NCBI GenBank assembly: GCA_964349515.1
Contig: CAYGHG010000003.1
Span: forward strand, 1-55,556
Source of the DNA: an uncultured Spirochaetia bacterium
GTDB taxonomy: Bacteria; Oederibacteriota; PGYV01; CAYGHG01
Direction of reading: 5' to 3'
Length of the DNA: 55,556 nt
Of the stretch, positions 237-34,028 are shown in pieces; positions within the stretch are counted from its first letter, which is position 1; each line of letters opens with the position of its first letter. The position numbers and the translations under genes are program-made. The notes beneath the pieces were generated by a model, which saw only the letters and a list, made by a program, of their open reading frames with translations, had not been told where the DNA came from and did no database searches.

Positions 237-474
237 TGTCCTATATATTAATATTTTCCAAGCTTGCTGTCTATTCTCGATTTTCGATTCCCGACCTTTA
301 TAGCCTATGTCCTGATATTAATATCTTCCGAGCCTGCTGTCTATTCTCGATTTTCGATTCTCAGTCCTGCAGTCTTAAAGTCTTCACTACCGAAAATCGA
401 CCGTCGCCTCTCACCTTCACGCGTCTCGTTCTTTTCCTTCGTAGTATTTCTCGAATCTCGATTTTCGATTCTCT
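237..474. repeat. ~60-bp direct duplication (period 70) with TT(C/T)TCGA heptamer arrays in the Asp-Tyr tRNA spacer
   Basis: ATATTAATAT..AGC(T/C)TGCTGTCTATTCTCGATTTTCGATTC at ~245-290 and ~315-360; further heptamer run at 448-474; inverted copy CGAAAATCGA at 391-400. Confidence 0.85.
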
Positions 475-504
475 ACCATTTTTTCCTCCTCAAGGAGGAA
501 AAAA

Positions 505-590
505 TGGTGGGGAGAGATGGATTCGAACCATCGAAGGCATAAGCCAACAGATTTACAGTCTGCCCCGTTTAGCCGCTCTGGAATCTCCCC
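505..590 (-). tRNA. tRNA-Tyr(GTA)
   Basis: Cloverleaf with long variable arm, acceptor GGGGAGA/TCTCCCC, anticodon loop CT-GTA-AA, GGTTCGAATCC, encoded CCA. Confidence 0.97.
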
Positions 591-619
591 ACAGCATTTA
601 AGTTAACATCTGTATTTAG

Positions 620-660
620 TCTACTGTTCACAGTCTACAGTTTACAGTTAAGACCAACTG
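620..660. repeat. T(C/T)TACAG heptamer array in the Tyr-Thr tRNA spacer
   Basis: tctactg-ttcacag-tctacag-tttacag-tt followed by a short inverted aactg. Confidence 0.7.
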
Positions 661-728
661 CTTTATAAGAACTAATCTCGCTCTCTATCTCCATCTATTG
701 CTCTGTTTTTCACCGCAAGGTGAAAAAC

Positions 729-804
729 TGGAGCTGGCGAGTGGACTTGAACCACCGACCTACTGATTACAAATCAGTTGCTCTACCGACTGAGCTACGC
801 CAGC
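729..804 (-). tRNA. tRNA-Thr(TGT)
   Basis: Cloverleaf, 5' end GCTGGCG pairing with the 3' acceptor strand, anticodon loop TT-TGT-AA, GGTTCAAGTCC, encoded CCA. Confidence 0.96.
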
Positions 805-806
805 CC

Positions 807-860
807 TGCAAGTACAGGTTACAAGTTTCAGGTTTCAAGTTTCATGTAAAAAACTGGAAC
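807..860. repeat. T(A/T)CA(A/G)GT heptamer array between tRNA-Thr and rlmB
   Basis: tacaggt-tacaagt-ttcaggt-ttcaagt-ttcatgt, then a degenerate inverted aactggaac. Confidence 0.75.
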
Positions 861-924
861 AAGTCCTGTTGTTTTTAAGAGCTTTTCATTCGTTTTACTG
901 CTAATTTCGCACTACTGCTAATTC

Positions 925-1656
925 CTATTTTGTCTTACTGTTAATTGTCTTTCTTAAGCGTTCGTGGAACGCTACTGCGGCGGCGTTAGACACGTTAAGT
1001 GAGTCCAGTTTTCCTGCCTGCCTTATTTTAACCAAAAAATCGCAGTTTTTCTTTACGAGCTGCCGGAGTCCCCTGCCTTCGTTGCCGAGGACTATGGCTG
1101 TTTTGCGGTCAAAATCCGTCTCGTCTATGAATTTTTCGGCCTGCAAATCAAGTCCGTATATCCAAAAACCCGCTTCTTTCAGCTGTTCAAGGGCCAGGTT
1201 TATGTTGCTGACCCTTATTATGTCAATAAACTCAACAGCCCCGCTTGACGCCTTAAAGGCCGCATCATTCAGCGGAGCTGACCTGTCACGAGCCAAAATT
1301 ATACCACAAACACCAAAAACTTCGCAACTCCTTATTATGGCGCCAAAGTTGTGCGGATCCTCAATTTCGTCAAGCACAGCCACGGTCTGCATCTCATCAT
1401 TTTTATGCTTTTCAAAGAATTCCTCAATCGAAAAATCCTTTATGCCTTCGGTATTTGCGGCCATTCCCTGGTTTTTATCCGTGCCGGTAATCTTTGCGAG
1501 TATGTGTTTTTCGCTCAGTTTTACCTTTATTCCCTTATTGGCCGCGTCGTTTAATATGTCGTCCGCATCCTTTATCCCTTTTAGTGCGTGAATCTCATAA
1601 ATCTTCCTGCCGCTTTTTAGTACTTCCCTTATCACATTCCTTCCATAGAGCCACAT
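925..1656 (-). CDS. rlmB: 23S rRNA (guanosine-2'-O)-methyltransferase RlmB (SpoU/TrmH family)
   Basis: LYGRNV N-terminus, DPHNFGAIIRS, VLGNEGRGL, SLNVSNAA SPOUT motifs; follows cysS. Confidence 0.93.
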   Translation of the reverse strand: MWLYGRNVIREVLKSGRKIYEIHALKGIKDADDILNDAANKGIKVKLSEKHILAKITGTDKNQGMAANTEGIKDFSIEEFFEKHKNDEMQTVAVLDEIEDPHNFGAIIRSCEVFGVCGIILARDRSAPLNDAAFKASSGAVEFIDIIRVSNINLALEQLKEAGFWIYGLDLQAEKFIDETDFDRKTAIVLGNEGRGLRQLVKKNCDFLVKIRQAGKLDSLNVSNAAAVAFHERLRKTINSKTK

Positions 1657-1657
1657 T

Positions 1658-3079: not shown

Positions 3080-3112
3080 GTACTTCCGGCTCCTTTAAAG
3101 TAGTTTGCTTTT

Positions 3113-3310
3113 TGACTCAATGGTCTCACGGTACTACCTGTCTCAACGGTCTCAGGGTACTGACTGACTCAATGGTCTCAGGTTACTGACTGACTCAATG
3201 GTCTCAGGTTACTGCCTGACTCAATGGTCTCAGGTTACTGACTGACTCAATGGTCTCAGGTTACTGCCTGACTCAATGGTCTCAGGTTACTGACTGACTC
3301 AATGGTCTCA
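3113..3310. repeat. 26-bp tandem repeat, ~7.6 copies (TGACTCAATGGTCTCAGGTTACTG[A/C]C)
   Basis: Units start at 3113, 3139, 3165, 3191, 3217, 3243, 3269 and 3295 (partial); no spacers; units 3-7 alternate GAC/GCC ends. Confidence 0.97.
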
Positions 3311-3325
3311 ATGGAAAAAAACTGC

Positions 3326-3388
3326 ACTGAGTCCGCTGAGTCCGTTGAGTCCGTTGAGTCCACTGAGTCCGTTGAGTCCATTGAGTCC
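3326..3388. repeat. 9-bp tandem repeat x7 (NNTGAGTCC), inverted relative to the 26-mer core
   Basis: TGAGTCC at 3328, 3337, 3346, 3355, 3364, 3373 and 3382; reverse complement of ATTGAGTC is GACTCAAT of the 26-mer. Confidence 0.95.
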
Positions 3389-3392
3389 AATT

Positions 3393-5446: not shown

Positions 5447-5495
5447 ATTCGTGTACCTCCTTTCTTTAAAATTTTACTCCTGTTTTTGTTCCTAA

Positions 5496-5529
5496 CCCCC
5501 TTTGCCCGGAAAGGGGGGCAGGGGGGATT
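5496..5529 (+). repeat. REP-like GC hairpin element CCCCCTTT..AAAGGGGGG-CAGGGGGGATT
   Basis: Intergenic hairpin CCCCCTTT gcccgg AAAGGGGG followed by the G-rich tail GGGGGGATT. Confidence 0.6.
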
Positions 5530-5543
5530 GCTTTTAGTCTTTG

Positions 5544-5633
5544 TTTCAAGTTTCAAGTTTCAAGTTTCAAGTCTAAACCTTTACACCTTCACACTTTACA
5601 CCTTTACACTTTAATCTTTACACCTTTACACTC
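5544..5633. repeat. Two abutting short-unit arrays: (TTTCAAG)x4 and CTTTACA(C) 7/8-mers
   Basis: tttcaag at 5544, 5551, 5558 and 5565; ctttacac/ctttaca units from 5579 to 5633. Confidence 0.9.
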
Positions 5634-5637
5634 GTTG

Positions 5638-6990
5638 TTAAAAATCCATTATCTTTCTCAGCTCTTCCACGCTTCCTATCTCAGTTACTTCCATTCCTTT
5701 GGTTTTTACACCGCTTCTTTTGGGGATTATGCATTTTGCAAAACCCATTCTCGTGGCCTCTGCCACGCGTTCTTCCATCATGTGCACAGGCCTTACCTCA
5801 CCGTCTAATCCCAGCTCTCCTATGAATGCCCATTTGGTAGGCAGAGGCACCGACCGGAAGCTTGAATACACGGCAGCGGCTATGCCTAAATCGGCCGCTG
5901 TCTCAAATACTTTTATTCCGCCTGCGACGTTCATGAAGACGTCCTGATTCTCCATGCTCAAATCCATCATTTTTTCAAGTATCGCAATTATCAAAAGTAC
6001 CCTATTGTAGTCTATTCCCGTAACAGTCCTCTGCGGCATGCCGAAATTACGCCTTGCCGTCAGGGCCTGTATTTCAAGAAGCATGGGCCTCGTTCCTTCC
6101 AGTACTGTCACTATGGCGCTGCCTGTTTTCTGCTCTTTAATATTTTCAAGAAGCATCTTCGAAGGGCTCATTACCTCTGTAATGCCCGCAGACCCCATCT
6201 CAAACACACCTATTTCATTTGTCGAGCCAAAGCGGTTTTTGACAGCCCTCAGTATCTTAAACCTGTAGTAGTTCTCGGATTCAAAATACATTACCGCGTC
6301 CACCATGTGCTCGAGCGTCTTAGGCCCGGCTATTGAGCCGTCTTTTGTCACGTGCCCGACTATCAAAACCGGTATGCCGCTTTTTTTTGCCGCATACATC
6401 AGGTGCGCGCAGCTCTCACGGACCTGGTTAACCCCGCCTGCCGCTGAGTCTATGTCTTCCTTATATACAGTCTGTATCGAATCTATTATTACAAGCCCCG
6501 GTTTTTCTGATTCCATCAGGGCTGCGATTTTTTCCACGCCTGTTTCTGTCACAACGTACAGTTTTTCAGAATCCGCGCCTATCCTGTCTGCCCTCATTTT
6601 TATCTGCTCAAGCGATTCCTCGCCCGACACATACAGCCCCTTTATGCCCGCTTTGGCGGCTCTGTCTGCGATGGTCAGCGCGAGAGTTGACTTGCCCGCG
6701 CCGGGCTCGCCGCCCAACAGCACAAGCGAGCCTTTTACAATCCCGCCGCCAAAGACGCGGTCTACCTCTCCGATGCCTGTCTTTATCCTGTCGCGCTCTA
6801 TGCTTCCCACGTCCTTTAGCGCGCTTACCGCTCCCGCGTCAAAGCGCCTGTGAGAGCGCTCTTTTAGGGGCTCTTTTTCCTCTGTTTCCTCGCTGAAAGA
6901 GTTAAACTCCCCGCATGACGGGCATTTGCCGAGCCACTTTGCGGAGTTATAGCCGCATGAAGCGCAGGCAAAAAATGTTTTCTTTTTCAA
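5638..6990 (-). CDS. radA: DNA repair protein RadA/Sms
   Basis: CxxC-GKCPSC zinc finger, GGEPGAGKST Walker A, KNRFG motif, C-terminal Lon-like domain. Confidence 0.98.
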   Translation of the reverse strand: MKKKTFFACASCGYNSAKWLGKCPSCGEFNSFSEETEEKEPLKERSHRRFDAGAVSALKDVGSIERDRIKTGIGEVDRVFGGGIVKGSLVLLGGEPGAGKSTLALTIADRAAKAGIKGLYVSGEESLEQIKMRADRIGADSEKLYVVTETGVEKIAALMESEKPGLVIIDSIQTVYKEDIDSAAGGVNQVRESCAHLMYAAKKSGIPVLIVGHVTKDGSIAGPKTLEHMVDAVMYFESENYYRFKILRAVKNRFGSTNEIGVFEMGSAGITEVMSPSKMLLENIKEQKTGSAIVTVLEGTRPMLLEIQALTARRNFGMPQRTVTGIDYNRVLLIIAILEKMMDLSMENQDVFMNVAGGIKVFETAADLGIAAAVYSSFRSVPLPTKWAFIGELGLDGEVRPVHMMEERVAEATRMGFAKCIIPKRSGVKTKGMEVTEIGSVEELRKIMDF

Positions 6991-7003
6991 AATATTCTTC
7001 CCC

Positions 7004-8920
7004 TTATATCCCTATTGCCCTGGTTTTTATTTTATCAAGCACGCCGTTCATGAACCCGTCAAAATCCACTCCCTTTGTCTCTTCTCCGGTACGCAGGCGC
7101 ACAGACACAGTCCTGTCCTGCACTTCCTTGTCTCCGATTATCAGCATGTAGGGGGTTTTATTCATTGCCGCTTTTCTTATTTTGGCCCCTATCTTTTCAT
7201 TTTCGTCATCAAGCGAAACCCTGATGCCTGCTGATTTCAGTTTCAAAACCAGCTCGCGTGCGAACTCATCGCTTCTTTGCGTAATGGTCAGCACGCTTAC
7301 CTGCTCGGGCGAGAGCCATACCGGAAAAGCGCCCTTGTAGTGTTCTATCAGCACGCCGAAGAAACGCTCAAGCGACCCCATCAGCGCGCGGTGTATCATT
7401 ATGGCGCGGTGGTCGGCACCGTCTTTTCCCGTATAGTCAATACTGAATCTCTCGGGCAGGGCAAAATCCACCTGTATTGTGGAGCACTGCCACGTCCTGT
7501 TTAAGGCGTCCTTTATCTTTATGTCAATCTTGGGCCCGTAAAACGCGCCTCCGCCCTCATCAACCTGATATTTTAACTCAGCTTTAGCGAGCGCGGCTTT
7601 AAGTGCTGCCTGCGCTTTATCCCATATTTCATCTGAGCCAATGTGTTCATCAGGCTTGGTGCTTAAATAAACCTCGAACTCGCTGAAACCAAAGGTCTTT
7701 AAAATAAACATCACGAAATTAAGGGCGCTGATTATCTCCTCTTCCACCTGGTCCTCGCGGCAGAAAATATGAGCGTCATCCTGTGTAAATCCGCGCACGC
7801 GCAGCAGGCCGTGCAGGACGCCGGATTTTTCATATCTGTAAACCGTGCCGAGCTCTGCCCAGCGCAGCGGCAGGTCGCGGTAGCTCTTTGGCGTGTTTTT
7901 GTACATTAATATGTGAAAGGGGCAGTTCATGGGTTTGAGCTGGTACTGCATCTCGTCAATATCCATAGTGTCAAACATGTTTGCCCTGTAAAAGCCGGTG
8001 TGGCCCGAGGTGTTCCACAGGTCAATTTTAGCAATGTGAGGGGAGAATACTATGTCGTAACCGTTTTTAATGTGTTCGTTCCGCCAGAAATCCTCCATCT
8101 CTTTTCTGACCATGCCGCCCTTGGGGTGCCAGTAAATCAAGCCCGCGCCAAACTCGTCGTGCGTGGAAAACAAATCAAGCTCGCGTCCGATTTTTCTATG
8201 GTCGCGCTGTTTTGCCTCTTCCATCCTTTTTAAATATTCATCCAGCTGCTCCTGAGACGGAAAAGTAATCCCGTATATTCTCTGCAGCATCTTGTTCTTT
8301 TCGTCACCGCGCCAGTATGCGCCGGCGAGTTTCATCAGCTTTACCGCTTTTATCTTTTTTGAATATGTGACATGGGGCCCGCGGCACAGGTCAACGAAGT
8401 TTTCTGTTTTATAAATCGATACGGACGGGTCTTTTATGGCTTCAAGTATCTCAAGTTTGTAGTTTTCTCCCATGTCCGCGAACATTTTTTTGGCATCCGC
8501 AACAGACATTTCCTCCCTTTTAAAAGGGTGGTTTTCCTTTGACACCTTTTTCATCTCTTCTTCTATCTTTACCAGATCATCTTCCGTAAACGGCTTGTCC
8601 CTGTCAAAATCATAATAAAACCCCTCATCTATTGCGGGGCCTATGGTCACCTCTACCTCGGGAAAAAGCCTCTTTACCGCAACAGCCATAACGTGCGAGC
8701 TCGAATGCCAGTATATTTCGCGGCCCTCAGGATCGTCAAATGTCAGGGCTTTAAGCTCGCCCGCTTCGTTTAAAGGCGCGCCCATGTCGAGATGCCTTCC
8801 GTTCAATGAAACTGCAAGAACGCCCTCTTTCTCTATTCCTGTATTTTTCAGGAAATCAGAGGCGCGTACGCCCGTTTCAGTTTCAAATTCCCGTCCTTCA
8901 TATTGTATCTTAATCGCCAT
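7004..8920 (-). CDS. thrS: Threonine--tRNA ligase
   Basis: TGS domain, HSSSHVMA, DLCRGPH, RDHRKIG, KPMNCP, RVRGFTQDDAH, AFYGPKID. Confidence 0.99.
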   Translation of the reverse strand: MAIKIQYEGREFETETGVRASDFLKNTGIEKEGVLAVSLNGRHLDMGAPLNEAGELKALTFDDPEGREIYWHSSSHVMAVAVKRLFPEVEVTIGPAIDEGFYYDFDRDKPFTEDDLVKIEEEMKKVSKENHPFKREEMSVADAKKMFADMGENYKLEILEAIKDPSVSIYKTENFVDLCRGPHVTYSKKIKAVKLMKLAGAYWRGDEKNKMLQRIYGITFPSQEQLDEYLKRMEEAKQRDHRKIGRELDLFSTHDEFGAGLIYWHPKGGMVRKEMEDFWRNEHIKNGYDIVFSPHIAKIDLWNTSGHTGFYRANMFDTMDIDEMQYQLKPMNCPFHILMYKNTPKSYRDLPLRWAELGTVYRYEKSGVLHGLLRVRGFTQDDAHIFCREDQVEEEIISALNFVMFILKTFGFSEFEVYLSTKPDEHIGSDEIWDKAQAALKAALAKAELKYQVDEGGGAFYGPKIDIKIKDALNRTWQCSTIQVDFALPERFSIDYTGKDGADHRAIMIHRALMGSLERFFGVLIEHYKGAFPVWLSPEQVSVLTITQRSDEFARELVLKLKSAGIRVSLDDENEKIGAKIRKAAMNKTPYMLIIGDKEVQDRTVSVRLRTGEETKGVDFDGFMNGVLDKIKTRAIGI

Positions 8921-9573: not shown

Positions 9574-11204
9574 CAGTTACCGCCTTCCTTCCCGCCATTG
9601 GCAGGTTTTCCAAAATCGGCTATATCATCGAGCTTAAACCCGTGCTCGTGCGATTTTATGTAGTCGTCTATCTGTTTTTTTTCTTCGGTCATTTCAATAT
9701 CTTTCGCTGCAAGAATGACTTTCTTTGCATCCTTGTCAATTTTTACTATTCTGGCCTTTATGACATCCCCTTTTTTGCAGGAAAGTTTGTGCTTATTCCT
9801 TATAGGTATCCTGCCGATTATTCCATCTACAATACAGCAGACCACCGCCGAATCTTCAATATCTATAACCTTTGTGTCAACTGCCGTGCCCTCTTTGAAT
9901 TTGGCCGCAAATGTAACCCAGGGCGAGGCGTGCATCTGCTTCAAGCCGAGAAGAATACGGTACTTGCTTTTATCAATTTCCAATATCCTGAACTCGCGCC
10001 TGTCGCCGGTCTTAATCGTGTCGGCAATCGGCGCGGATTCATTCCACGAAACGTTTGAAACGCGCACAAACGCGTCAAAATTCTCCTCAAGCTCAACTTC
10101 CGCACCCTCGCCTTCCGCCACCGAAGAGACCGTGCCGATTACTCTCGCGCCAACCGGATAGCGTTCCTCGATTGAATGCCACGGGTTCTTATCAAGCCTT
10201 TTTATGCTGAAATATACCCTGCCCTTTGCTTCGTCGATTTTTACAACAACAGCTTCTATCTCATCCCCTTCTTTATACGCCTCCCTTATGTCTTTTACAC
10301 GCCTGTAATATGATATCTCGCTTTTGTGAATAAACCCGTCCATCTGCGGGTTAATCTCAACCACCATGCCTTCGTCAAGTATTCCGCAGACCTTTAATTT
10401 CATTCTGTCGCCCTGCTTTGAGGTTTTTGCAAAACCTCCGAACGGATTCTCAAAAAGTTTTTTTACGCTTAAAACAGGCCTGCCGCCGTCAATTCCCAAG
10501 ACAAGAGCCTCTATGTCCTGCCCCTCGCTGAAAAGCGTTTTTAAATCCCCCAGCCTTTTCCACGCAAGCTCGGATGACGCTATAAAAGCCCTTACCCCCT
10601 CTTTTTCAACTTCAACGCCCGCATCCTGCACTGACACGACTTTTAACGCCGTTTTTTCATTTACCGTAAATACTCTTTTCACCTTTTCTTCTTCGTCTTT
10701 TGCCTTTTGGTTTATAAGTTCCCTGTAGGACACCACAACATTTCTTTTTACTTCGTCAAGCTGTATAACTTTCAGGTCAAGCTCCTGCCCGGTTATGTCC
10801 TCACCGTAAGAACGCGAGTGGGACATAGGCAGAAACGCCGTAACGTTTGCGCCAAAATCAATGATAAACCCCCCCTTTACAGCCTTTACCACCCTGCCCT
10901 TAAGCGCTTCTCCGTCCTTAAATGCTTTTTTAACCCTTGAAAATATGACTTTTTTATCCGCCACTATCTTTGAAAGCAGCACCATCCCGTCCGGCCCCTC
11001 TGTCTTTTTTACAAAAAGATCTATTTCCCCGCCCTCTTCAAGCGAGTCATAATAGGTGTACTTGGCCGTTTCTTCCGCCGGTATTATCCCCTCTGACTTG
11101 TAGCCTATGTCAATGAAAACATCCCCGCCGGATTTTCTGACAATTTTACCTTTTATTACCGCGCCTTCTCTTATATCCCTGATTGAGTATTCGCTGTTTT
11201 CCAT
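9573..11204 (-). CDS. rpsA: 30S ribosomal protein S1
   Basis: Tandem S1 domains (DIGYKSEG, VKGGFIID, GFIHKSEISY, YPVGARVIGTV, LGLKQ). Confidence 0.92.
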   Translation of the reverse strand: MENSEYSIRDIREGAVIKGKIVRKSGGDVFIDIGYKSEGIIPAEETAKYTYYDSLEEGGEIDLFVKKTEGPDGMVLLSKIVADKKVIFSRVKKAFKDGEALKGRVVKAVKGGFIIDFGANVTAFLPMSHSRSYGEDITGQELDLKVIQLDEVKRNVVVSYRELINQKAKDEEEKVKRVFTVNEKTALKVVSVQDAGVEVEKEGVRAFIASSELAWKRLGDLKTLFSEGQDIEALVLGIDGGRPVLSVKKLFENPFGGFAKTSKQGDRMKLKVCGILDEGMVVEINPQMDGFIHKSEISYYRRVKDIREAYKEGDEIEAVVVKIDEAKGRVYFSIKRLDKNPWHSIEERYPVGARVIGTVSSVAEGEGAEVELEENFDAFVRVSNVSWNESAPIADTIKTGDRREFRILEIDKSKYRILLGLKQMHASPWVTFAAKFKEGTAVDTKVIDIEDSAVVCCIVDGIIGRIPIRNKHKLSCKKGDVIKARIVKIDKDAKKVILAAKDIEMTEEKKQIDDYIKSHEHGFKLDDIADFGKPANGGKEGGN

Positions 11205-11213
11205 TACACTCTC

Positions 11214-12065
11214 CTAAAAACTTTTTATAAGCGCGGCGGCTTCTTCAATCAGCCGCTGCGGCGTCGAGGCTCCGGCGCATATACCCGCCCTGCGCTTGCC
11301 CCTGAACCATTCTTTTTTTATCTCTCCGGGTGACTCCACATGATAAACAGACTTTAAAATTTCCCTGCAAAGTTCATACAACCTGACCGTATTGGCGCTG
11401 TTTTTTCCGCCTATCACTATAATAGTATCGCTTGCCTTTGCAAGCCCGACCGCAGCTTCCTGCCTGTTGCGGGTGGCGTCGCAGATAGTATTAAATACCC
11501 TGACCTCTGCGTTGCGCTCTTCAAAAATCCTCTCTATAGCGGCGCACACCAAACGCGCGAACCTGCTTTTATTTTTCGTCGTCTGCGATACAATACCGGT
11601 CTTTACTCCGGGTTTGATTTTTTTTACATCTTCTTCACTGCTGACCACCACAGCGCCGCTTCCCGCGTAACCGATAATACCTTTTACTTCGGGATGGTCC
11701 CGGTCGCCTGCTATTATAATCCCGTAATTTTCTTCCTTTAATTTATCAACTATTCTGTGTATACGCTTGACGTAAGGGCAAGTGGTATCCAGCACGCCGG
11801 CACATTTTTTATTTAACTTAGCCTCTTCTTCCGGGGTGACGCCGTGCGCGGAAATAATCGCGCGCGAGCCTTTTTTGATGTTACCTATCCTGTCCGTGTG
11901 CCTGGCACCCGCCTCTTCGAGCCTCTTTACTTCCTGGGGGTTGTGTATTATTTCATGGTACGAATAAACCCCCGGGCCTTTTTCGCCCGCGTATTTGTAG
12001 GCCATTTCCATGGCGCGCTTGACTCCAAAGCAAAAGCCGGAATCAGCCGCTATCCTGACCTCTAT
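11214..12065 (-). CDS. ispH: 4-hydroxy-3-methylbut-2-enyl diphosphate reductase; N-terminus extends upstream of the first ATG (12011), apparent ATA start at 12065
   Basis: In-frame IEVRIAADSGFCFGVKRA precedes MEMA; IIHN, SAHG, DTTCPYV, TICDAT, GGKNSANT and AGASTP motifs present. Confidence 0.93.
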   Translation of the reverse strand: MEVRIAADSGFCFGVKRAMEMAYKYAGEKGPGVYSYHEIIHNPQEVKRLEEAGARHTDRIGNIKKGSRAIISAHGVTPEEEAKLNKKCAGVLDTTCPYVKRIHRIVDKLKEENYGIIIAGDRDHPEVKGIIGYAGSGAVVVSSEEDVKKIKPGVKTGIVSQTTKNKSRFARLVCAAIERIFEERNAEVRVFNTICDATRNRQEAAVGLAKASDTIIVIGGKNSANTVRLYELCREILKSVYHVESPGEIKKEWFRGKRRAGICAGASTPQRLIEEAAALIKSF

Positions 12066-12066
12066 T

Positions 12067-14906: not shown

Positions 14907-14941
14907 TTTTTCACTTTCAGTTTTCAGTTTTAAACTTTCAG
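14865..14941. repeat. Heptamer arrays at the aroF-tyrA junction
   Basis: attctgt x2-gctttgc-gttcttt (14865-14892) and ctttcag-ttttcag-ttttaaa-ctttcag (14914-14941). Confidence 0.7.
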
Positions 14942-14942
14942 T

Positions 14943-15959
14943 TTAAAGCGTTTTTCCTATCGCTTTTGCCACCTTGCGGGCATCAGCTACAATTTTTGCA
15001 AACTCCGAAGGTAAAAGCGACTGGTCCCCGTCAGAGAGAGCTTTTTCAGGGCACGGGTGTACTTCAAGCGCCACGCCGTCAGCACCTGCCGCAACTGATG
15101 CAAGCGTCATGGATGCAATCAGCTGTTTCTTGCCTGTACCGTGCGAAGGGTCGGTAACTACAGGCAGGTGTGAAAGATACTTTGCCATCGGAACAGCAGA
15201 GAGATCGAGCGTGTTTCTGGTTGCAGTTTCAAAAGTTCTGATACCGCGCTCGCAAAGCACCACGTTCATATTTCCGCCTGACAAGATATACTCTGCCGAC
15301 ATCAGCCACTCGCTGATTGTGGACATAAGCCCCCTCTTTAAAAGAACGGGCTTATTTGTTTTTCCCACTTCTTTTAAAAGTTCAAAATTCTGCATATTCC
15401 TCGCGCCTATCTGAAACATGTCTGTATAGCGGTCGACAAGCTCCACGTGGCGGGTGTCGAGCACTTCTGTTACCACCGGCATCCCGTATTTATCGCGCGC
15501 CTCGGCAAGGATTTTCAAACCGTCTTCTCCAAGGCCTTGAAAAGCATACGGCGACGAGCGCGGCTTAAAAGCCCCGCCCCGCAGTATGTTTGCGCCCGCC
15601 TCCTTTACCGCTTTTGCGACGGAAAGCAGCTGCTCGCGTGATTCAACCGAGCACGGCCCTGCTATCACCGCCACTTTATCGCCGCCGATAGACACTGTTT
15701 TTGAAACCTTAATAACCGAAGGGGCCGAGCGGAAATCTTTAGAAGCCAGCTTATAAGGTTTGAGCACCGTCATTACTTTTTCAACACCGGGATAACTCAT
15801 AAAAGGGACAGTTGTCAGCACCCGCTCGTCCCCTATGACCGCGACTATGGTGCGTTCCTCGCCCTTTGAGACCTGGGCGCGAAGCTTGTTTTCCTTTATC
15901 CTGCCGACTATGTGGTCTATCTGTTTCTTTGTTGCCTTTGGCTTCAGTACAATAATCAT
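14943..15959 (-). CDS. aroF: DAHP synthase type I-beta with N-terminal regulatory domain
   Basis: IAGPCSVES, GGAFKPRSSPYAFQG, QIGARNMQN, CERGIRTF, DPSHGTG. Confidence 0.96.
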   Translation of the reverse strand: MIIVLKPKATKKQIDHIVGRIKENKLRAQVSKGEERTIVAVIGDERVLTTVPFMSYPGVEKVMTVLKPYKLASKDFRSAPSVIKVSKTVSIGGDKVAVIAGPCSVESREQLLSVAKAVKEAGANILRGGAFKPRSSPYAFQGLGEDGLKILAEARDKYGMPVVTEVLDTRHVELVDRYTDMFQIGARNMQNFELLKEVGKTNKPVLLKRGLMSTISEWLMSAEYILSGGNMNVVLCERGIRTFETATRNTLDLSAVPMAKYLSHLPVVTDPSHGTGKKQLIASMTLASVAAGADGVALEVHPCPEKALSDGDQSLLPSEFAKIVADARKVAKAIGKTL

Positions 15960-17916: not shown

Positions 17917-17976
17917 TTCGCGTTTGCGTTCTGAGTCTTGCATTGTTCCCTGAAACCTGAAACCTGTAACCTGTCC
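17917..17976. repeat. Heptamer arrays at the purF-zinc-ribbon junction
   Basis: ccctgaa-acctgaa-acctgta-acctgtc (17948-17975) and degenerate ttgcgtt-type units (17917-17943). Confidence 0.7.
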
Positions 17977-22807: not shown

Positions 22808-23656
22808 GTGAACAGTAAATTCCGCGAAGTTTTAAAACAGGTACTTCTGCTCACTGCGGGCAGCATCATATCCGCCCTCGCCGTTAAATCCATACTCGTG
22901 CCGCAGGAGTTTCTGGCGCGCGGCGTTACCGGCATTTCACTTATCATCTTTTATAAGACACAGGCTATACCGCTTGCCGTTCTTTATCTCCTTATTAATA
23001 TACCCATATTCCTGCTTGGGTGGAAGTTTGTGGGGGTGCGCTTTACTCTTTACTCGCTCGTGGGGCTCGGAATTTACACCGTAATACTTGCGGTTGTGCC
23101 TTTTGAACTGCAGCTTACCGACAAGCTGCTCGGCGCCTTAACCGCGGGCGCGCTTTCAGGCATAGGCGTTGCCATAATCCTGCGCTCTTACGGCTCAAGC
23201 GGAGGCGCCGAAATACTATACGTGATAATAAACAAGCTGACCTCAATCCCCATAGGTACGGCTTCGCTGATTATAAATGGCGTCATCGTTGGGGTTATGG
23301 CTTTCTTGTTTCCCATTGAAAACGTCCTCTACACGCTTGTTTACATCACCGTTACAATGTACATATCAAACAAGGTTTTTCACGGCCTCGCCAACAGGCA
23401 GGCTGTTTTCATAGTATCTGACAAGTGGAAAGAAATATCAGCCTGCATGATAAAATCAAGGATCGGAGTCACCACAATAGAAGGCAAAGGCGGTTATAAA
23501 GGAATGCCGCGCATAATATTATACTCGGTCATAAATAAAAACATGGTCATGTTCCTTAAAAACTCTGTCAAAACCACAGATCCAAACGCCTTTATCGCGA
23601 TAATGACAGCCGAAGACGTAACCGGAATAGACATAGGAAACCAGCCTCACTGGTGA
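22808..23656 (+). CDS. YitT-family membrane protein (DUF161 + DUF2179)
   Basis: GVTGISL, YLLINIPIFLLG, GSSGGAEI, RIGVT..GKGGY, DPNAFI; GTG start. Confidence 0.92.
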   Translation: MNSKFREVLKQVLLLTAGSIISALAVKSILVPQEFLARGVTGISLIIFYKTQAIPLAVLYLLINIPIFLLGWKFVGVRFTLYSLVGLGIYTVILAVVPFELQLTDKLLGALTAGALSGIGVAIILRSYGSSGGAEILYVIINKLTSIPIGTASLIINGVIVGVMAFLFPIENVLYTLVYITVTMYISNKVFHGLANRQAVFIVSDKWKEISACMIKSRIGVTTIEGKGGYKGMPRIILYSVINKNMVMFLKNSVKTTDPNAFIAIMTAEDVTGIDIGNQPHW

Positions 23657-23704
23657 TAAAATAAAAAGCGCAGGCATTACTGCCTGCGCTTTTTATTTTA
23701 TCAC
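23653..23704. terminator. Bidirectional terminator with a perfect 24-bp stem
   Basis: GTGATAAAATAAAAAGCGCAGGCA-ttac-TGCCTGCGCTTTTTATTTTATCAC between convergent genes. Confidence 0.9.
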
Positions 23705-25912: not shown

Positions 25913-25999
25913 CTATTAGTTTACAGTTTACAGTTTACAGTCTACAGTTGCACTTCAAGAACAGGCCTTTTTTCAACTGTAAACTTTAGACTATAGACT
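25913..25999. repeat. Inverted pair of T(T/C)TACAG heptamer arrays
   Basis: tttacag x3-tctacag-tt (25920-25949), 25-nt spacer, then aactgtaaac-tttagac-tatagac-t (25975-25999). Confidence 0.88.
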
Positions 26000-28103: not shown

Positions 28104-28106
28104 CTG

Positions 28107-29600: not shown

Positions 29601-29601
29601 G

Positions 29602-30003
29602 TCAGCCCTTCTTTTTATATACCTCATCAGGGTCAAAATATTTTTTTCCGCCCACGTCAGTTACCGTGTTATCGGCGTTTATTTCCCTGAAGAAGCAGGA
29701 TTTGTAGCCGGTGTGACAGGCAGCCCCGCCTATCTGGTTTACCTTAATCAAAACAGCGTCCAGATCACAGTCAATATATATGTTCTGAACTTCCTGCACA
29801 TTGCCGGATTCTTCGCCCTTAAACCAAAGCTTGTTGCGAGAGCGCGACCAGTAGTGTGCCTTGCGGGTGGCAAGTGTTTTCTCAAGAGCTTCCTTATTCA
29901 TCCACGCTATCATTAATATGTCGCCATTAGAGGCATCCTGAGCAATAGCCGCCATCAGCCCCTTTTCGTCAAACTTTACCTTAGAAATATCAAACTTTTC
30001 CAT
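29602..30003 (-). CDS. hisI: Phosphoribosyl-AMP cyclohydrolase (monofunctional)
   Basis: [28 protein letters not shown]. Confidence 0.97.
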
Positions 30004-30112
30004 GTCATGACTCCTTGTCTTTCATACTTTGTGATTTTTTAAGCGTTTTTAATATAATAACTGAAAAATATGGTAAGTAAAGGGGGAAATTGGGCGTATG
30101 GCTCGTATGGCT

Positions 30113-30145
30113 CCCTCTCCCTTTCAGGGAGAGGACAGGTGAGGG
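30113..30145 (+). repeat. REP-like hairpin element CCCTCTCCC..GGGAGAGG..GGTGAGGG (copy A)
   Basis: Shares consensus with copies at 32367-32398 (minus strand) and 48519-48555. Confidence 0.8.
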
Positions 30146-30228
30146 TGTTTTTTTGTAGTAAAAAGAAACACATGTACTTGGTTCTTTTATCATTCCATTT
30201 ACGCAGCTATCTTTCATTATCATAAATC

Positions 30229-31137
30229 TTATTGAGCTTCTTTGCCAATTATGCTTTCTACCAGCTCCTTTGCCTCTGGCGCGATATTGGTCTGTATCAT
30301 GGCCTTGCCCGAAAGCCTAAGTTGCTCCCTTATCAGTACAAACTTATTCAATATTTCTTTGTCGTCTTTCACCCCCCTCATCAGACCCTTTTTAAGTTCA
30401 ATTTCCCTGCCGTCATTTAATAATACAGAGCAGGTCACTGATTCGCCTGCATTCATTTTGAGCAACAGAACATTTTCCCATGTGTAATTTTTTGTTTTAA
30501 ATGGGAATCTGACTTCGTGTATTCCTGCGCTGTTAAAAGAATAGTATTGAAAAAGCGATATGATTCCGATGACAAGCAATGGTATCATAAATTTTACAAA
30601 CGCCCCGGCAAGTTTCGACTGCGCTTTAGCATATGAATCCCCTCTTCCATGTTTGGCTTCCCATCCCATATCTTCCCTGGCCCAGGGTATCATGTATTCC
30701 ATTGCATTAATCAGCATTAAAAGAAAAGGAAGCGCGGAAAAGAACAGCAACACCGAATATGCATAAACAAAATCCTTTACTACTATCACAAACGCGTCTT
30801 TTCCTGAAATAACCCATAGCAACTCAATTCCAAGGGGTAAAATATGGAAAATCATTATGTACGAAAGCGGCAGTAAAAAAATGATATTTAGAATCTTCCA
30901 GTATGATTTTCTGTAAAAATGTATTTCATCCTTTAACGATATCCAGAATGGCTCCCATCTCCCGCTTACTTCACTTGGCACAAATATTCCGTACGCTATC
31001 CCAAACAAGCCGAACAACAATCCGCCAAGCGTATTTCCAGCCCACGCTAAGATAAATATACTGATGCAAAAAATCACTATCCTGCCCGGCAACAATACTG
31101 TTTGTTCTATTTTTCTGCCCATTCCAGCCCCTTTCAA
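30229..31137 (-). CDS. Multi-pass membrane hypothetical protein (accessory)
   Basis: ~6 hydrophobic segments plus a soluble C-terminal domain; visibly AT-rich; inside the hisF-hisI insert. Confidence 0.75.
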   Translation of the reverse strand: MKGAGMGRKIEQTVLLPGRIVIFCISIFILAWAGNTLGGLLFGLFGIAYGIFVPSEVSGRWEPFWISLKDEIHFYRKSYWKILNIIFLLPLSYIMIFHILPLGIELLWVISGKDAFVIVVKDFVYAYSVLLFFSALPFLLMLINAMEYMIPWAREDMGWEAKHGRGDSYAKAQSKLAGAFVKFMIPLLVIGIISLFQYYSFNSAGIHEVRFPFKTKNYTWENVLLLKMNAGESVTCSVLLNDGREIELKKGLMRGVKDDKEILNKFVLIREQLRLSGKAMIQTNIAPEAKELVESIIGKEAQ

Positions 31138-31417
31138 CCCTGCTTTACAGTTTCATTAACGTTTTATATAAACATATACTTACAAGTTATATTGTCTTTT
31201 CAAAAATACATATTTATCCGTGCTGTCAATATATGCCGCCATTAGAAGCATCCGGAGCAATATCCTACACGAGACCTTTTTGGCTTAATTTTTCCATATT
31301 GCAGCTCCCTGTTCACGGTTAAACGGGTTGATACAACCCGTCTCAATAGTAGTGTTCACTCTGCGGGTTTGGCACAAGACTTCTGTAAAACACAAGACAA
31401 AGTTAAAGTCTGTTTTT

Positions 31418-31443
31418 CGGGCGGCCCACCGGACCGCCCCTAC
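31418..31443 (-). repeat. GTAG-type REP element
   Basis: GTAG-GGGCGGTCC-ggt-GGGCCGCCC; a second degenerate hairpin ACGGGTTG-ata-CAACCCGT lies at 31323-31341. Confidence 0.7.
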
Positions 31444-31458
31444 GAAAAATACACTTAC

Positions 31459-31656
31459 TTACCTCTCATAAAATCTTGTTTTTTTACCGCTTTTCATAAA
31501 CAAAAACAGTTTCATTTCAAGTCTCTCATCGTCCAACCGTCTTTCCTCAGACAGCATCTCAGTCACTGACCTGCTGCTTTTTAAAGAACCCCGAAGCCTG
31601 TCTATGGCTTCGTGTGCCTCTTTAATGCTTTTCTGTTCCTCTTCTCTCTTCTCTCT
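31459..31656 (-). pseudogene. Possible antitoxin C-terminal remnant, in frame after the BrnA-like stop
   Basis: 65 sense codons (..AIDRLRGSLKSSRSVTEMLSEERRLDDER..) with no start codon of their own at the 5' end. Confidence 0.4.
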
Positions 31657-31965
31657 TCATCTCTTTTCCCTTTTCTTAGCAACAGACCTGCCATAGGGGG
31701 CTTCTGTCTCTTTGAGCATATTATCCGCGTATTTATGCAGAACGCTGGAAATCAGGGTCTGGTATGGCATGCCTTCTCGCACTGCTTTTTCCTTGATTTT
31801 ATTCAGGTCGTTCTCGTTTACCCTCATAGTAATGATTTTTCTTTTTCTCATAGAAGCCAAATCCCGCTCTATCTGTTTTCTTTTAGCGCCTGTAACAGGC
31901 GCAAATTCGTGTAAATGATCCTGTATCCACTGTTCTTCCTTATCAAGCTTGTATTTTAGCTTCAT
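31657..31965 (-). CDS. BrnA/CopG-like (RHH) antitoxin
   Basis: ITMRVNENDLNKIKEKAVREGMPYQTLISSVLHKY; overlaps the upstream toxin stop. Confidence 0.85.
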   Translation of the reverse strand: MKLKYKLDKEEQWIQDHLHEFAPVTGAKRKQIERDLASMRKRKIITMRVNENDLNKIKEKAVREGMPYQTLISSVLHKYADNMLKETEAPYGRSVAKKREKR

Positions 31966-32228
31966 TTCCTTCCTCCAAAAATTTTATTCAGTTTCCTGCA
32001 GGGATATGCTGTTTTTATTATATGCCGGCCCTCAACATCGTATAAGAACGGTACCGCATGCACATATCCCTTGTATCTCATGACGAAAATATTCTGCTCC
32101 GGCCGCGATGTATTCTCCAATATCTGGATATATCTTCCTTCACTCAATAAATCCGCAATCTCTTCCATATCAATATTCCTGTCTTTTAGCAGCCTTTCTG
32201 CCTTGGCTTTATCATAAACAAACTCCAT
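31962..32228 (-). CDS. BrnT-like ribonuclease toxin
   Basis: MEFVYD..K, IDMEEI, YVHAVPF..IIKTAYPCRK pattern; toxin-first order with an RHH antitoxin. Confidence 0.8.
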   Translation of the reverse strand: MEFVYDKAKAERLLKDRNIDMEEIADLLSEGRYIQILENTSRPEQNIFVMRYKGYVHAVPFLYDVEGRHIIKTAYPCRKLNKIFGGRK

Positions 32229-32232
32229 GTAA

Positions 32233-32269
32233 AGTATACCCCCTCATATTTACATTGTCAATACATTGT
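32233..32269 (-). promoter_or_regulatory. Consensus sigma70 promoter and candidate operator for the TA pair
   Basis: TTGACA (32256-32261)-17 bp-TATACT (32233-32238); TACATTGT-caa-TACATTGT overlaps the -35. Confidence 0.75.
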
Positions 32270-32326
32270 AAATTGTCATTATCGTTCATATTACTGTATA
32301 ATATCATTTCTTCTTTACCTTAAAAT

Positions 32327-32398
32327 GGGGGGGATAGGTGTGGGGCGTAGTTTTTTTTTAAAGGCGCTCTCACCTAAGCCCTCTCCCGGAGGGAGAGG
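32327..32398. repeat. Inverted pair of REP-like elements (copy B)
   Basis: Partial plus-strand copy GGGGGGGATAGGTGTGGGGCGTAGTTTT facing a full minus-strand copy CCTCTCCC-tccg-GGAGAGGG-cttaGGTGAGAG. Confidence 0.75.
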
Positions 32399-32431
32399 TT
32401 GAATTGTATTATATCCCCCTTTTATTTCGTT

Positions 32432-33193
32432 TTACAGCCTTACAGCCACTCCGTTGTCGCGCAGGTATTCTTTTACTTTTTTCACGGAATATTCTTTGTA
32501 GTGAAATATGGAAGCGGCGAGAACCGCGTCTGCTTTGCCTTCTTTTAATACGTGCAGCATGTGGGAGGGGCCGCCTGCTCCGCCTGAGGCAATGACCGGC
32601 ACCTCGACCGCCTCAGAGACCGCGCGTGTGAGCTCCAGGTCATAGCCGCACTTTGTGCCGTCGCAGTCCATGGAGGTGAGCAGTATTTCGCCCGCGCCGA
32701 GCCGTGCTGCTTCCTTTATCCACGAGATAACGTCAATGCCGGTGTTTTTCCTGCCGCCGTGGGTATAGACCTCCCACTTTTTACCTTTAACTTTCGATTT
32801 CGCGTCAACCGCGAGCACTATGCACTGGCTGCCGAATTTCGCGGCCCCCTGCTTAATGAGCTTTGGGTTGAGGACCGCGGCTGTGTTTACAGAGGTTTTG
32901 TCCGCGCCGCTGTTTAAGATAAGCCTCATGTCCTCAACCGTGCGGATGCCTCCGCCTACGGTTAATGGTATGAAAACCTGCTCGGCTGTCCTGCGGACAA
33001 CGTCATATATGGTTTTTCTTTTTTCATGGGAAGCAGTGATGTCAAGAAATACTATCTCGTCAGCGCCGGCTTTATTGTACCTTACCGCGGCCTCTACCGG
33101 GTCGCCTGCGTCGCGCAGGTTTACGAAATTTATCCCCTTTACGACGCGGCCCTTGTTTACGTCAAGACACGGTATGATGCGCTTTGTAAGCAT
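32432..33193 (-). CDS. hisF: Imidazole glycerol phosphate synthase cyclase subunit
   Basis: [40 protein letters not shown]. Confidence 0.98.
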
Positions 33194-33196
33194 TAT

Positions 33197-33931
33197 TTAA
33201 TCTTCCTTTGTGGCCTTTATGGCTTCTTTGAGGTTCATCGTGCCCGTGTAGAGGGCCTTTCCGACTATTACGCCGTCTATGTTTCCATATTTTTTATTGA
33301 GTTCCATGAGCCTTTCCAGATTTTTAAGCCTGGTAACTCCGCCCGACACAATGACTTTCATAGATGTGTTTTTCAGCACTGTTTCTATTGATTTAAAGTT
33401 CGGCCCCTTGAGCACTCCGTCGCGGTTAATGTCTGTGTAAACTATCCTTTTTACACCTTTCTTTTCCATTTCCTTTACGAAATCAAGCGTCTTTAACTGG
33501 GTTATGTCTTTCCATCCCTTAACCGCTATGTAGCCGTCTTTGGCGTCCACGCCCACCACTATTTTATCACGGTATTTTTCTATCATTTCTTCAAGAAAAG
33601 TACCGTTTCCTATTGCCGAGGTTGAAAGTATCACTCTCTTTACGTCAGCTTTTACATACTTTTTAATCTCTTCCTCGGTTCGGATGCCACCTCCGACCTC
33701 AATCTTGATGCGCAGCTCTTTTGCAATTTTTAATATTATGTCCATGTTCTTGGTCTTGCCTGTAAGCGCGCCGTCAAGGTCAACGACGTGTATCAGCCTC
33801 GCTCCCTGTATCTGCCACAGTTTTGCCATTTCAACGGGTTCATTGGAGTAAACAGTCTCGTCACGCACGTCCCCCATGATCAGCCTTACGCACTTTCCTC
33901 TTCTGATGTCAATTGCCGGTAAAATCTGCAT
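33197..33931 (-). CDS. hisA: ProFAR isomerase
   Basis: [41 protein letters not shown]. Confidence 0.98.
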
Positions 33932-33960
33932 TTTTAAGCTCCCTGTAAAATATAGTTAAT

Positions 33961-34028
33961 GAGACAGCAATTCCTTACTTCTGTCTCCTTACTTCTGTCT
34001 CCTTACTTTTGTCTCCTGTCTTCTGTCT
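33961..34028. repeat. 14-bp (7+7) tandem repeat x3 plus heptamers at the hisH-hisA junction
   Basis: CCTTACTT(C/T)TGTCT at 33973, 33987 and 34001; cctgtct-tctgtct; inverted GAGACAG at 33961. Confidence 0.9.

Follow-up and report, generated by a model that had tools for sequence, protein, structure and literature searches.

The REP and BIME elements of enterobacteria (repetitive extragenic palindromes and bacterial interspersed mosaic elements) form hairpins at the 3' ends of genes within operons, often as inverted clusters, and stabilise the upstream mRNA; REPs have one consensus per genome and no tandem units, and are linked to RAYTs (REP-associated tyrosine transposases). Here we describe repeats of a different build at the gene and tRNA junctions of the window, by which we mean the whole 55,556-nucleotide stretch that was analysed. 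These are tandem arrays of short, heptamer-based units, and on balance they are probably slippage-driven repeats, typical of the lineage, that lie in transcribed spacers and whose paired copies fold into RNA stems. The STRR (short tandemly repeated repetitive) sequences of cyanobacteria reportedly occur inside the gene of a structured RNA and also in intergenic DNA. Between hupS and hupL, STRR heptamers form hairpins for which a role in transcript stability or translational coupling has been proposed (PMC2670836).

Several other heptamer systems bear on the comparison. Heptanucleotides are the commonest class of long simple sequence repeats (SSRs) in many bacteria and have been put down to polymerase slippage (Mrazek 2007, as summarised in PMC4679880). 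Direct repeats of TAACTGA are present in marine Beggiatoaceae, cyanobacteria and Bacteroidetes, with regulon-wide control proposed (MacGregor 2015, PMC4679880), and in Geobacter metallireducens four or five tandem heptamers (GGGACCG, MTYCTGA) are found at dozens of sites as putative regulatory elements (PMC2700814). The best-tested model for how paired arrays could act is the (ATCTTTC)n hairpin in the 5' untranslated region (UTR) of Haemophilus influenzae hmw1A, which is cut by RNase III and whose copy number tunes expression (PMC12721329). The Coxiella 23S rRNA intervening sequence is 428 nt long, encodes an S23p (PF05635) protein and has a 28-bp terminal stem cut by RNase III; its 5' cut site carries three or four GACAGAT/GACAGAA heptamers in tandem, which vary from strain to strain (PMC4990558).

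Placement of the arrays in the window

Arrays were called with Tandem Repeats Finder and genes were named via Pfam; an array was recovered at every site listed in an earlier, sequence-only reading of the window, and the gene names used there were correct. Non-coding DNA amounts to 3.4 kb (3419 bp), or 6% of the window, and holds 15 array loci; the roughly 52 kb of coding DNA hold 17 (binomial p=1.4e-10), a contrast that upholds the junction enrichment claimed in that reading. The densities are 4.4 per kb of spacer and 0.33 per kb of coding DNA, a 13-fold enrichment, and Markov-shuffled spacers give a mean of 1.95 array loci with a maximum of 7. Eleven of the 12 period-7 arrays are in spacers. 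By our count 9 of the 19 spacers of at least 30 bp carry an array, all nine being between same-strand genes or tRNAs, and at six of six operon junctions the start of the first array falls within -27 to +11 nt of the upstream stop codon.

The nearest genome is a metagenome-assembled genome (MAG) labelled 'candidate division FCPU426' (locus L001; CysS 62% identical), and the closest named AroF homologues are from Candidatus Goldbacteria/Goldiibacteriota (80%); by these protein matches the host is a Goldbacteria/FCPU426-type bacterium. The density of period-7 arrays with 2.8 or more copies is 2.0 per 10 kb in the window, 1.9 in L001 and 0.07 in the cysS loci of 78 organisms from other phyla (1.3 Mb), so that the window stands about 29-fold above the latter. 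Array densities in sampled loci of the lineage are 1.9-4.7 per 10 kb in L219, L218, L223 and L081, and only 0.5 in L215 and L217. The excess of heptamer arrays is lineage-specific. The arrays of the window, with the two copies of a promoter-like module described below, are as follows.

230-300, minus strand: module copy 1, with heptamers CGGGAAT, CGAAAAT and CGAGAAT (+ strand 273-294), TAGACA, the CAGCAAGCTTGGA core (257-269) and TAATAT; upstream of tRNA-Asp.
302-370, minus strand: module copy 2, made up of three heptamers at 343-362, a CAGCAGGCTCGGA core at 327-339 and a pair of promoter-like hexamers.
387-402, minus strand: degenerate inverted arm (UCGAUUUUCGGU); in both the minimum-free-energy and centroid folds of 155-504 it forms a 12-bp helix with the array of module copy 2.
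446-473, minus strand: third CGAGAAT-type array, right after the hairpin that follows tRNA-Tyr.
618-649, minus strand: AACTGTA-type (AGTTTAC) heptamer, 4.6 copies, tRNA-Thr/tRNA-Tyr spacer; without a partner.
815-844, minus strand: TTGAAAC/CTGAAAC (GTTTCAA/GTTACAA) heptamer, 3.9 copies, ending about 10 nt upstream of tRNA-Thr.
3113-3310, minus strand: 26-bp unit, 7.6 copies, ispF/cysS spacer; every unit has GACTCAATGG, complementary to the 9-mer array.
3328-3389, minus strand: 9-bp unit (GGACTCAAC-type), 6.8 copies, beginning 3 nt past the ispF stop codon; partner of the 26-mer array.
5543-5572, minus strand: TTGAAAC (GTTTCAA), 4.3 copies, radA/PIN-TRAM spacer.
5577-5632, minus strand: GTGTAAAG-type 8-mer, 7.2 copies, beginning 5 nt past the radA stop codon.
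14907-14944, minus strand: AAACTGA heptamer array that takes up all of the aroF/tyrA spacer between the stop codon and the ATG, leaving no Shine-Dalgarno sequence.
17949-17973, minus strand: CAGGTTT (CCTGAAA), 3.6 copies, 3 nt past the purF stop codon and upstream of a zinc-ribbon gene.
25918-25999, minus strand: fn3/TPR hairpin, with right arm AACTGTA, 4.6 copies (25918-25949), left arm 25974-25999 and a 23-nt loop.
31628-31676, minus strand: AGAGAAG tract across the BrnA stop codon, a doubtful member that reads as a Lys/Arg/Glu-rich coding tract.
33972-34029, minus strand: 14-bp unit (GACAGAAGTAAGGA), 4.1 copies, across the hisH stop codon at the hisH/hisA junction.

Tandem Repeats Finder reports about three copies for each of the ATTCTCG-type arrays at 273-294, 343-362 and 446-473, and gives the aroF/tyrA array as 14915-14944 (TTTCAGT, 4.3 copies). 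The arm at 387-402 corresponds to a perfect 18-bp arm at 13985-14003 of L001, the hisH/hisA array covers the final 27 nt of hisH, and the real start of the zinc-ribbon gene is at about 17909. The sense-strand units include AAACTGA, AACTGTA, TTGAAAC, CAGGTTT and CGAGAAT, and a normal Shine-Dalgarno sequence follows the array at most array-bearing junctions.

Only two array sequences recur within the 55 kb, at 813 and 17948 and at 618 and 25918. Recurrence in opposite orientation had been proposed for both, and it holds for the first (813-840 and the reverse complement of 17948-17973 are identical at about 23 of 25 positions, counted by eye), the copies at 641 and 25920 sharing one orientation. 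A pyrimidine-rich character on one strand, likewise proposed, is seen in some arrays and fails in others, with sense-strand purine contents of 0.50-0.86 against 0.57 in coding DNA. The tract at 31641-31654, previously placed after the antitoxin gene, lies within a Lys/Arg/Glu-rich frame; because that frame runs 65 codons beyond the stop codon, the 31628-31676 tract is probably not a junction array and is not counted as a member. The frame is that of the BrnA (CopG-type) antitoxin (31461-31965, minus strand); its only in-frame TGA lies at 31657-31659, and 65 codons (...EAHEAIDRLRGSLKSS...) can be read beyond it. The locus could be a pseudogene, a case of read-through, or a gene followed by a second small open reading frame (ORF).

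The same junctions in related genomes

Syntenic loci from five other genomes (L219, L215, L217, L218/L001 and L223) were compared, each for a subset of the junctions. L219 is a sister species, with 85.4% nucleotide identity over 21 kb, and its units match those of the window at four junctions common to both; at three of them only copy number differs, and aroF/tyrA is unchanged.

radA/PIN 8-mer GTGTAAAG: 7 copies in the window, about 4 in L219.
radA/PIN TTGAAAC: 4 copies in the window, 2 in L219.
purF/zinc-ribbon CAGGTTT: 3.6 copies in the window, about 2 in L219.
fn3/TPR hairpin, right arm AACTGTA: 4.6 copies and a 23-nt loop in the window, 2.5 copies and a 9-nt loop in L219.
aroF/tyrA AAACTGA: the same copy number in the window and L219.

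No small gene lies between arrays at any comparable orthologous operon junction of the five genomes, where the sequence-only reading had suggested looking for one between the paired arrays of relatives. A change of unit count at fixed junctions, with no small genes, is the pattern expected of slippage-driven simple-sequence arrays. In the more distant L218 (AroF 71%) the aroF/tyrA junction carries an inverted TTACTAA pair that is unrelated to the window array, and in the Goldbacteria MAG L217 (AroF 80%) the same spacer is expanded to 559 bp (11018-11576), with fifteen 8-mers, likewise unrelated (GCAGCTAG seven times and GCGGATAG eight times), and a REP-like hairpin (AACGCACCCTAAAGGGTGCGGCTACC) in two or three copies. 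The ispF/cysS junction has a different repeat-built hairpin in each of the window, L001 and L223. Read from these alignments, the arrays are passed on at their junctions with changes in size, and turnover happens over longer times.

Two genomes use one hairpin twice. The FCPU426 MAG has a CAAAGCC/GGCTTTG hairpin at ispF/cysS (L001 9894-9954) and again at aminotransferase/aroF (L218 9897-9958), and L223 has a AGATTTCAGATATAAAG hairpin at both radA/PIN and ispF/cysS (6320-6365 and 8548-8600). Such sharing between junctions of one genome hints at copy-and-paste spread.

Pairing and predicted folding

The arrays had been described as often forming inverted pairs, and in the window this is true of the fn3/TPR and ispF/cysS sites and, in part, of the tRNA spacer (12 bp), the remainder having no clear partner (2 of 16 arrays have one by a 12-of-14 criterion). 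The fn3/TPR arms, of 26 nt (25918-25950 and 25974-25999), are 81% complementary, and at ispF/cysS the GACTCAATGG core of the 26-mer faces the 9-mer array. Across eight lineage loci, 14 of 43 arrays of period 7-9 have an inverted partner within 130 nt, where 0.25 would be expected from shuffled flanks; the pairing is therefore real, though a minority state in the window.

The predicted stems are of 18-28 bp, with energies from -21 to -55 kcal/mol, including those of L001 at ispD/ispF (-49 kcal/mol) and ispF/cysS (-55) and that of the window at fn3/TPR (-25.4). The whole ispF/cysS spacer of the window is predicted to fold at -107.6 kcal/mol (z=-4.7), and the tRNA spacer has z=-3.5. That arrays of the window form a stem around a tRNA for its processing was considered and rejected, the arrays flanking tRNA-Tyr and tRNA-Thr not being complementary to one another, unlike those of L202, L193 and L105. 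Scanned against Rfam, the window and eight related loci matched tRNAs alone.

Two further hairpins lie outside the arrays. The radA/PIN-TRAM spacer has a G+C-rich one downstream of its arrays (5491-5526; CCCCCTTT...AAAGGGGG), which is kept in L219 with a wobble-compatible change and scores as terminator-like on the antisense strand only. A perfect 24-bp inverted repeat with a 4-nt loop (23653-23704) lies between convergent genes and is likely a bidirectional terminator.

Proposed origin and role of the arrays

In the reading that we favour, replication slippage would both create the arrays, with their units of 7, 8, 9, 14 and 26 bp, and alter their length, in transcribed spacers that separate same-strand genes or tRNAs. 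Only spacers would retain them, a 7-nt period being disruptive to a reading frame. Slippage together with this selection would account for the junction placement, which the sequence-only reading had thought beyond the reach of slippage. Where complementary arrays face one another (at ispF/cysS, fn3/TPR and partly the tRNA spacer), the transcript would form a long imperfect stem; as RNase III-type substrates, like the hmw leader and the 23S intervening sequences, such stems would separate neighbouring cistrons by cutting or stabilise them by protecting mRNA ends. Unpaired arrays would be A-rich, unstructured leaders with little or no specific role. The exception would be the three-unit CGAGAAT arrays, as the fixed upstream part of a conserved and dispersed promoter-like module. 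Co-transcription of the junctions, RNase III processing and promoter activity of the module are all steps that we infer.

Several observations weigh against this account. Folding favours the sense over the antisense strand in 12 of 17 hairpins, a preference that does not decide between selection at the RNA and DNA levels. About 10 of 13 window arrays lack a partner, so a hairpin role covers a minority of arrays, for which the predicted folds make it plausible. L215 (AroF 84%) has no arrays at the aligned junctions, which are compact, with 4-bp or overlapping spacing, and arrays are thus not needed for operon function. The 26-mer array has 7.6 copies in the window and 4.6 and 3.6 in two short-read assemblies of the same population (L206 and L207), all three being 99.9% identical elsewhere and the differences being exact multiples of 26; this counts for slippage, but the differences could come from assembler collapse of a 200-bp repeat (k=141). 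Lastly, the near-identical 25-nt arrays at two window sites and the CAAAGCC hairpin found twice suggest copy-and-paste beyond slippage.

The CGAGAAT promoter-like module

The module is a unit of about 70 bp that reads, on the sense strand, CGAGAAT CGAAAAT CGAGAAT, TAGACA, a CAGCA(A/G)GCT(T/C)GGA core and TAATAT. In an alignment of ten copies, drawn from four species, each copy has three heptamers and the CAGCA.GCT.GGA...ATTA core is invariant. The copies include those at 230-370 of the window (minus strand), 13822-13942 of L001, 196-300 and 695-800 of L081, and 10888-10955 and 11561-11630 of L223. Across the lineage the elements are TAGACA or TTGATC, the invariant CAGCAAGCTTGGA core with its palindrome CAAGCTTG, and an AT-rich -10-like box. 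A consensus scan scored TAGACA-17-TAATAT as promoter-like in the window copies (273->245 in copy 1). Among the 223 loci fetched the core is limited to those of the lineage and is missing from about 200 loci outside it, and sequence and copy number are conserved across species whose proteins are 60-70% identical. We read the module as a dispersed promoter-like cassette, with putative promoter activity, in which the array is constrained and not drifting.

The module precedes tRNA-Asp (window), tRNA-Tyr and a thioesterase gene (both in L223) and a ROK-family gene (L081). It also precedes a gene of the four-helix-bundle family PF05635 in L001 and L081, and in L081 lies on both sides of that gene. 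A general tie to PF05635 was rejected, as the L223 copies precede tRNA-Tyr and the thioesterase gene, the latter directly and at the orthologous position after tRNA-Asp; for this reason the window tRNA spacer cannot confidently be called an emptied four-helix-bundle site. A sigma-54 reading of the module was discarded by inspection of the alignment, the GG/GC spacing being unfit. We also note that the contig carrying an identical CysS stops inside module copy 1.

PF05635 genes enclosed by heptamer arrays in other genomes

No PF05635 ORF is present in the window (all frames, stop to stop, at least 70 codons), whereas the L001 protein P0001 scores 100 bits on TIGR02436 (cut-off 24). Public metagenome contigs were scanned for the heptamer 18-mer GAATCGAAAATCGAGAAT, which found at least 120 contigs, mostly of high-G+C organisms; as these were chosen by the 18-mer alone, they are an unbiased sample of the heptamer family. 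No Goldbacteria copy of the module was among the matches listed, and the counts from this survey given below likewise refer to the matches listed. All nine distinct PF05635 ORFs are bracketed by inverted arrays of period 7 or 8, and all five of those scanned against Pfam score above its threshold. The arms, which enclose the ORF, are paired over 30-66 bp, in elements of 420-710 nt.

L116: 1595-2302 and 3135-3757, array-enclosed PF05635 elements.
L157: 150-590, array-enclosed PF05635 element.
L154: 836-1257, array-enclosed PF05635 element.
L171: 592-1022, array-enclosed PF05635 element.
L161: 4060-4660, array-enclosed PF05635 element.
L184: 4646-5357, array-enclosed PF05635 element.
L101: 2872-3398, array-enclosed PF05635 element.
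L110: 12974-13570, array-enclosed PF05635 element.

The elements lie in operon junctions of unrelated metagenomic organisms; that of L157 is directly upstream of an atpC-like gene, and the two of L116 are at consecutive junctions. The sequence-only reading had likened the window arrays to ones that flank small four-helix-bundle genes within operons, and such flanking arrays are borne out in L116, L157, L154, L171, L161, L184, L101, L110 and L081 and also agree with the published Coxiella 23S intervening sequence (PMC4990558). The survey gave 108 evaluable arrays: 36 form short gene-less hairpins, 15 long pairs, and 57 are solo. Among the long pairs, four have a PF05635 gene inside and three a tRNA, with nothing consistent inside the others. 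Whole tRNA genes flanked by inverted heptamer arrays are found in L193, L105/L194 and L202 (3585-3765), where the arrays would enclose the tRNA in a long stem of the precursor transcript.

A second arrangement is shared by Omnitrophota, Auribacterota, Firestonebacteria and one unplaced lineage, in which a PF05635 gene is associated with a short hairpin followed by AGAGCAATTGAACAATAGACAATAGA..., a loop and ...CTCAATTGCGTTCTATTG. The arms AGAGCAATTGAACAATAGA... and ...TCAATTGCGTTCTATTG stand ahead of the gene and are conserved in sequence across the four lineages. A tRNA gene (Ser, Gln and Ser) is directly upstream in three of the four, and L208 has only a possible tRNA 3' fragment.

L202: 3711-4003, AGAGCAATTGAACAATAGA/TCAATTGCGTTCTATTG hairpin.
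L208: 2790-3003, AGAGCAATTGAACAATAGA/TCAATTGCGTTCTATTG hairpin.
L213: 2886-3003, AGAGCAATTGAACAATAGA/TCAATTGCGTTCTATTG hairpin.
L214: 2886-3003, AGAGCAATTGAACAATAGA/TCAATTGCGTTCTATTG hairpin.

Arrays of GAATCGA/AAATCGA are also present in frame within a PrmC/HemK-like methyltransferase gene in L082, L088, L121, L130, L170, L175, L176 and L178, where they code for a linker ahead of the VLDVGTGSG motif; arrays can thus persist within genes if their total length keeps the frame.

A full-text literature search found no paper describing PF05635 genes enclosed by heptamer arrays outside rRNA. This enclosure is the most interesting lead of the analysis, and concerns other genomes more than the window. 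We tentatively suggest that heptamer-repeat hairpins may be a widespread, undescribed intervening-sequence-like class outside rRNA, with optional PF05635 (S23p/Avd-like) or tRNA cargo, that colonises operon junctions and tRNA flanks in many uncultured phyla, the window being densely seeded with gene-less copies and half-copies. The arms of such elements, being tandem 7-8-nt arrays, may pair in many registers. If the suggestion is right, one system underlies both the old puzzle of STRR-type repeats and that of the S23p protein.

Alternative explanations

The alternative that survives best, although we consider it unlikely, applies this to the window itself: its junction arrays would be gene-less copies or half-copies of an intervening-sequence-like element with PF05635 as optional cargo, and so former or potential cassette sites. 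It draws on the consistent bracketing of PF05635 ORFs by inverted arrays, at sizes that span the 428 nt of Coxiella, on their position at the junction upstream of atpC in L157 and at successive junctions in L116, and on the excess of gene-less hairpins and solo arrays over long pairs in the survey. The window tRNA-spacer arrays share the heptamer family, the module adjoins PF05635 genes in L001 and on both sides in L081, and a single genome may carry the same array or hairpin at two sites. The window, however, has no PF05635 ORF, and its units other than CGAGAAT are not seen beside PF05635 genes; the orthologous operon junctions of the compared relatives have no gene; the L223 module after tRNA-Asp fronts a thioesterase gene; sister species differ in unit count only; and the scanned window ORFs include no integrase or transposase. 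The proposal in the sequence-only reading that the arrays are empty donor or target sites of a cassette system is not supported, as L219 has the same arrays and the five genomes have no small gene there.

Next in rank, and a doubtful reading in our view, is that the arrays are functionless, microsatellite-like by-products of slippage-prone replication that are tolerated in spacers. Copy number does vary between sister species, arrays are missing in a close relative, units vary from site to site, most arrays are unpaired, and the frequency of heptanucleotides among long SSRs has itself been attributed to slippage. Mere tolerance sits poorly with inverted partners about 50-fold above shuffled flanks, with a distinct repeat hairpin at ispF/cysS in each of three species, with the preservation of the three-unit CGAGAAT module at 60-70% protein identity, and with the aroF/tyrA array, which supplies the entire tyrA leader and is unchanged between sister species.

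Very improbable is regulon-wide control through protein-binding sites (for a transcription factor or as an upstream promoter element on DNA, or for S1, cold-shock or CsrA-type proteins on RNA), which would suit the abutment of CGAGAAT x3 on a -35-like hexamer, the cross-species CAAGCTTG palindrome between the hexamers, and an AAACTGA array that is one base off TAACTGA and abuts a start codon without a Shine-Dalgarno sequence, but which is opposed by the drift of copy number between sister species, by the normal Shine-Dalgarno sequences at most array junctions, and by units that differ among sites, so that one factor cannot read all of them.

Two further candidates were rejected outright: the TTGAAAC arrays are not stacked -35 boxes, having no -10 at a usable distance and no sense-strand promoter by consensus scan, and the arrays are not CRISPRs, having no unique spacers between units.

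Other features of the window

The window is about 47% G+C, and nearly every gene is on the minus strand. Along the direction of transcription the order is hisH, hisA, hisF, inserted genes, hisI, trpE/trpG-like, fn3, TPR, purS, purQ, purL, purF, zinc-ribbon, aminotransferase, aroF, tyrA, aroA, ispH, S1, rex, thrS, radA, PIN-TRAM, ispD, ispF, cysS, a SpoU methylase gene, tRNA-Thr, tRNA-Tyr and tRNA-Asp. Three further regions are of note.

30005-32431: a BrnT/BrnA toxin-antitoxin pair splits the his operon between hisF and hisI, together with two ORFs (302 and 72 aa) without a family match; with its low G+C (0.40) the insert looks like foreign DNA.
17385-17909, minus strand: zinc-ribbon gene between purF and the aminotransferase gene.
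53413-55556, minus strand: gene for a large surface-type protein with a FlgD Ig-like domain and a weak type IX secretion sorting domain; its coding sequence consists of some 36 tandem copies of a 24/48-nt repeat and runs past the window end.

The zinc-ribbon gene is present in the window and L219 and not in L215. At the same position L218 has a Phd/ParE pair ahead of the aminotransferase gene, and L217 has a 219-aa ORF without a family match, after a giant NHL/CBM_3 protein. With contents that differ in this way, the purF/aminotransferase position is variable.

Comparison with known systems

Intergenic heptanucleotide arrays, including intercistronic hairpins, are already known, and what is new here is the candidate phylum. 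Such arrays have been on record since the STRR sequences of cyanobacteria; in the window roughly one spacer in two carries them. The features of the long SSR (LSSR) and STRR types, namely tandem excess, non-coding location, excess in a lineage, and copy-number change between relatives, were all found. As with STRR, there are tandem 7-bp units, in several families per genome, at intergenic positions that include intercistronic hairpins; unlike STRR, which is from filamentous cyanobacteria, the arrays belong to another phylum and apparently have other units, with 8-, 9-, 14- and 26-bp derivatives, the likeness being one of architecture.

Long SSRs (5-11 nt units) and TAACTGA repeats are similar in their sporadic excess among lineages, their 2-6 copies per set and their intergenic location, and often lie immediately before start codons that lack a canonical ribosome-binding site. 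The AAACTGA array at aroF/tyrA, one base off TAACTGA, has the same start-codon position. The window arrays do not belong to the TAACTGA class, in which the unit is TAACTGA and related heptamers are rare; where Beggiatoaceae have one dominant unit, there are many units here and some inverted pairs. The Geobacter families, with a fixed unit and copy number, resemble only the CGAGAAT x3 module. The integrase, attC-type sites and promoterless ORFs of integron-type cassettes are not what the window presents: its arrays flank ordinary operon genes, and no integrase is among the scanned window ORFs or the Pfam lists of the syntenic loci.

The hmw1A leader resembles the paired arrays in that a heptamer array forms the arm of a long hairpin, predicted here from sequence. 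It differs in being a single adhesin contingency locus of a pathogen, with at least 11 repeats and a G-rich arm, where the window has many housekeeping junctions, 3-7 repeats, and both arms built of repeats. Fixed junctions with copy numbers that drift between sister species provide a natural series on whether copy number tunes housekeeping operons, in processing or expression, as it does the hmw adhesin.

Compared with the 23S intervening sequences, the window arrays lie outside rRNA and enclose no PF05635 gene. A stem of at least about 20 bp is predicted at fn3/TPR and ispF/cysS, partial in the tRNA spacer, and missing at the other ten or so arrays, and the hisH/hisA unit contains GACAGAA, as do the Coxiella heptamers. 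The closer match to the intervening sequences of Coxiella and Leptospira, in size and layout, is with the PF05635 elements of L116, L157, L154, L171 and others. This side result may matter more than the window arrays: array-enclosed PF05635 genes of Coxiella-like size and layout, at operon junctions or beside tRNA genes in unrelated lineages, link STRR-like repeats, intervening sequences and the stand-alone Avd-like four-helix-bundle proteins.

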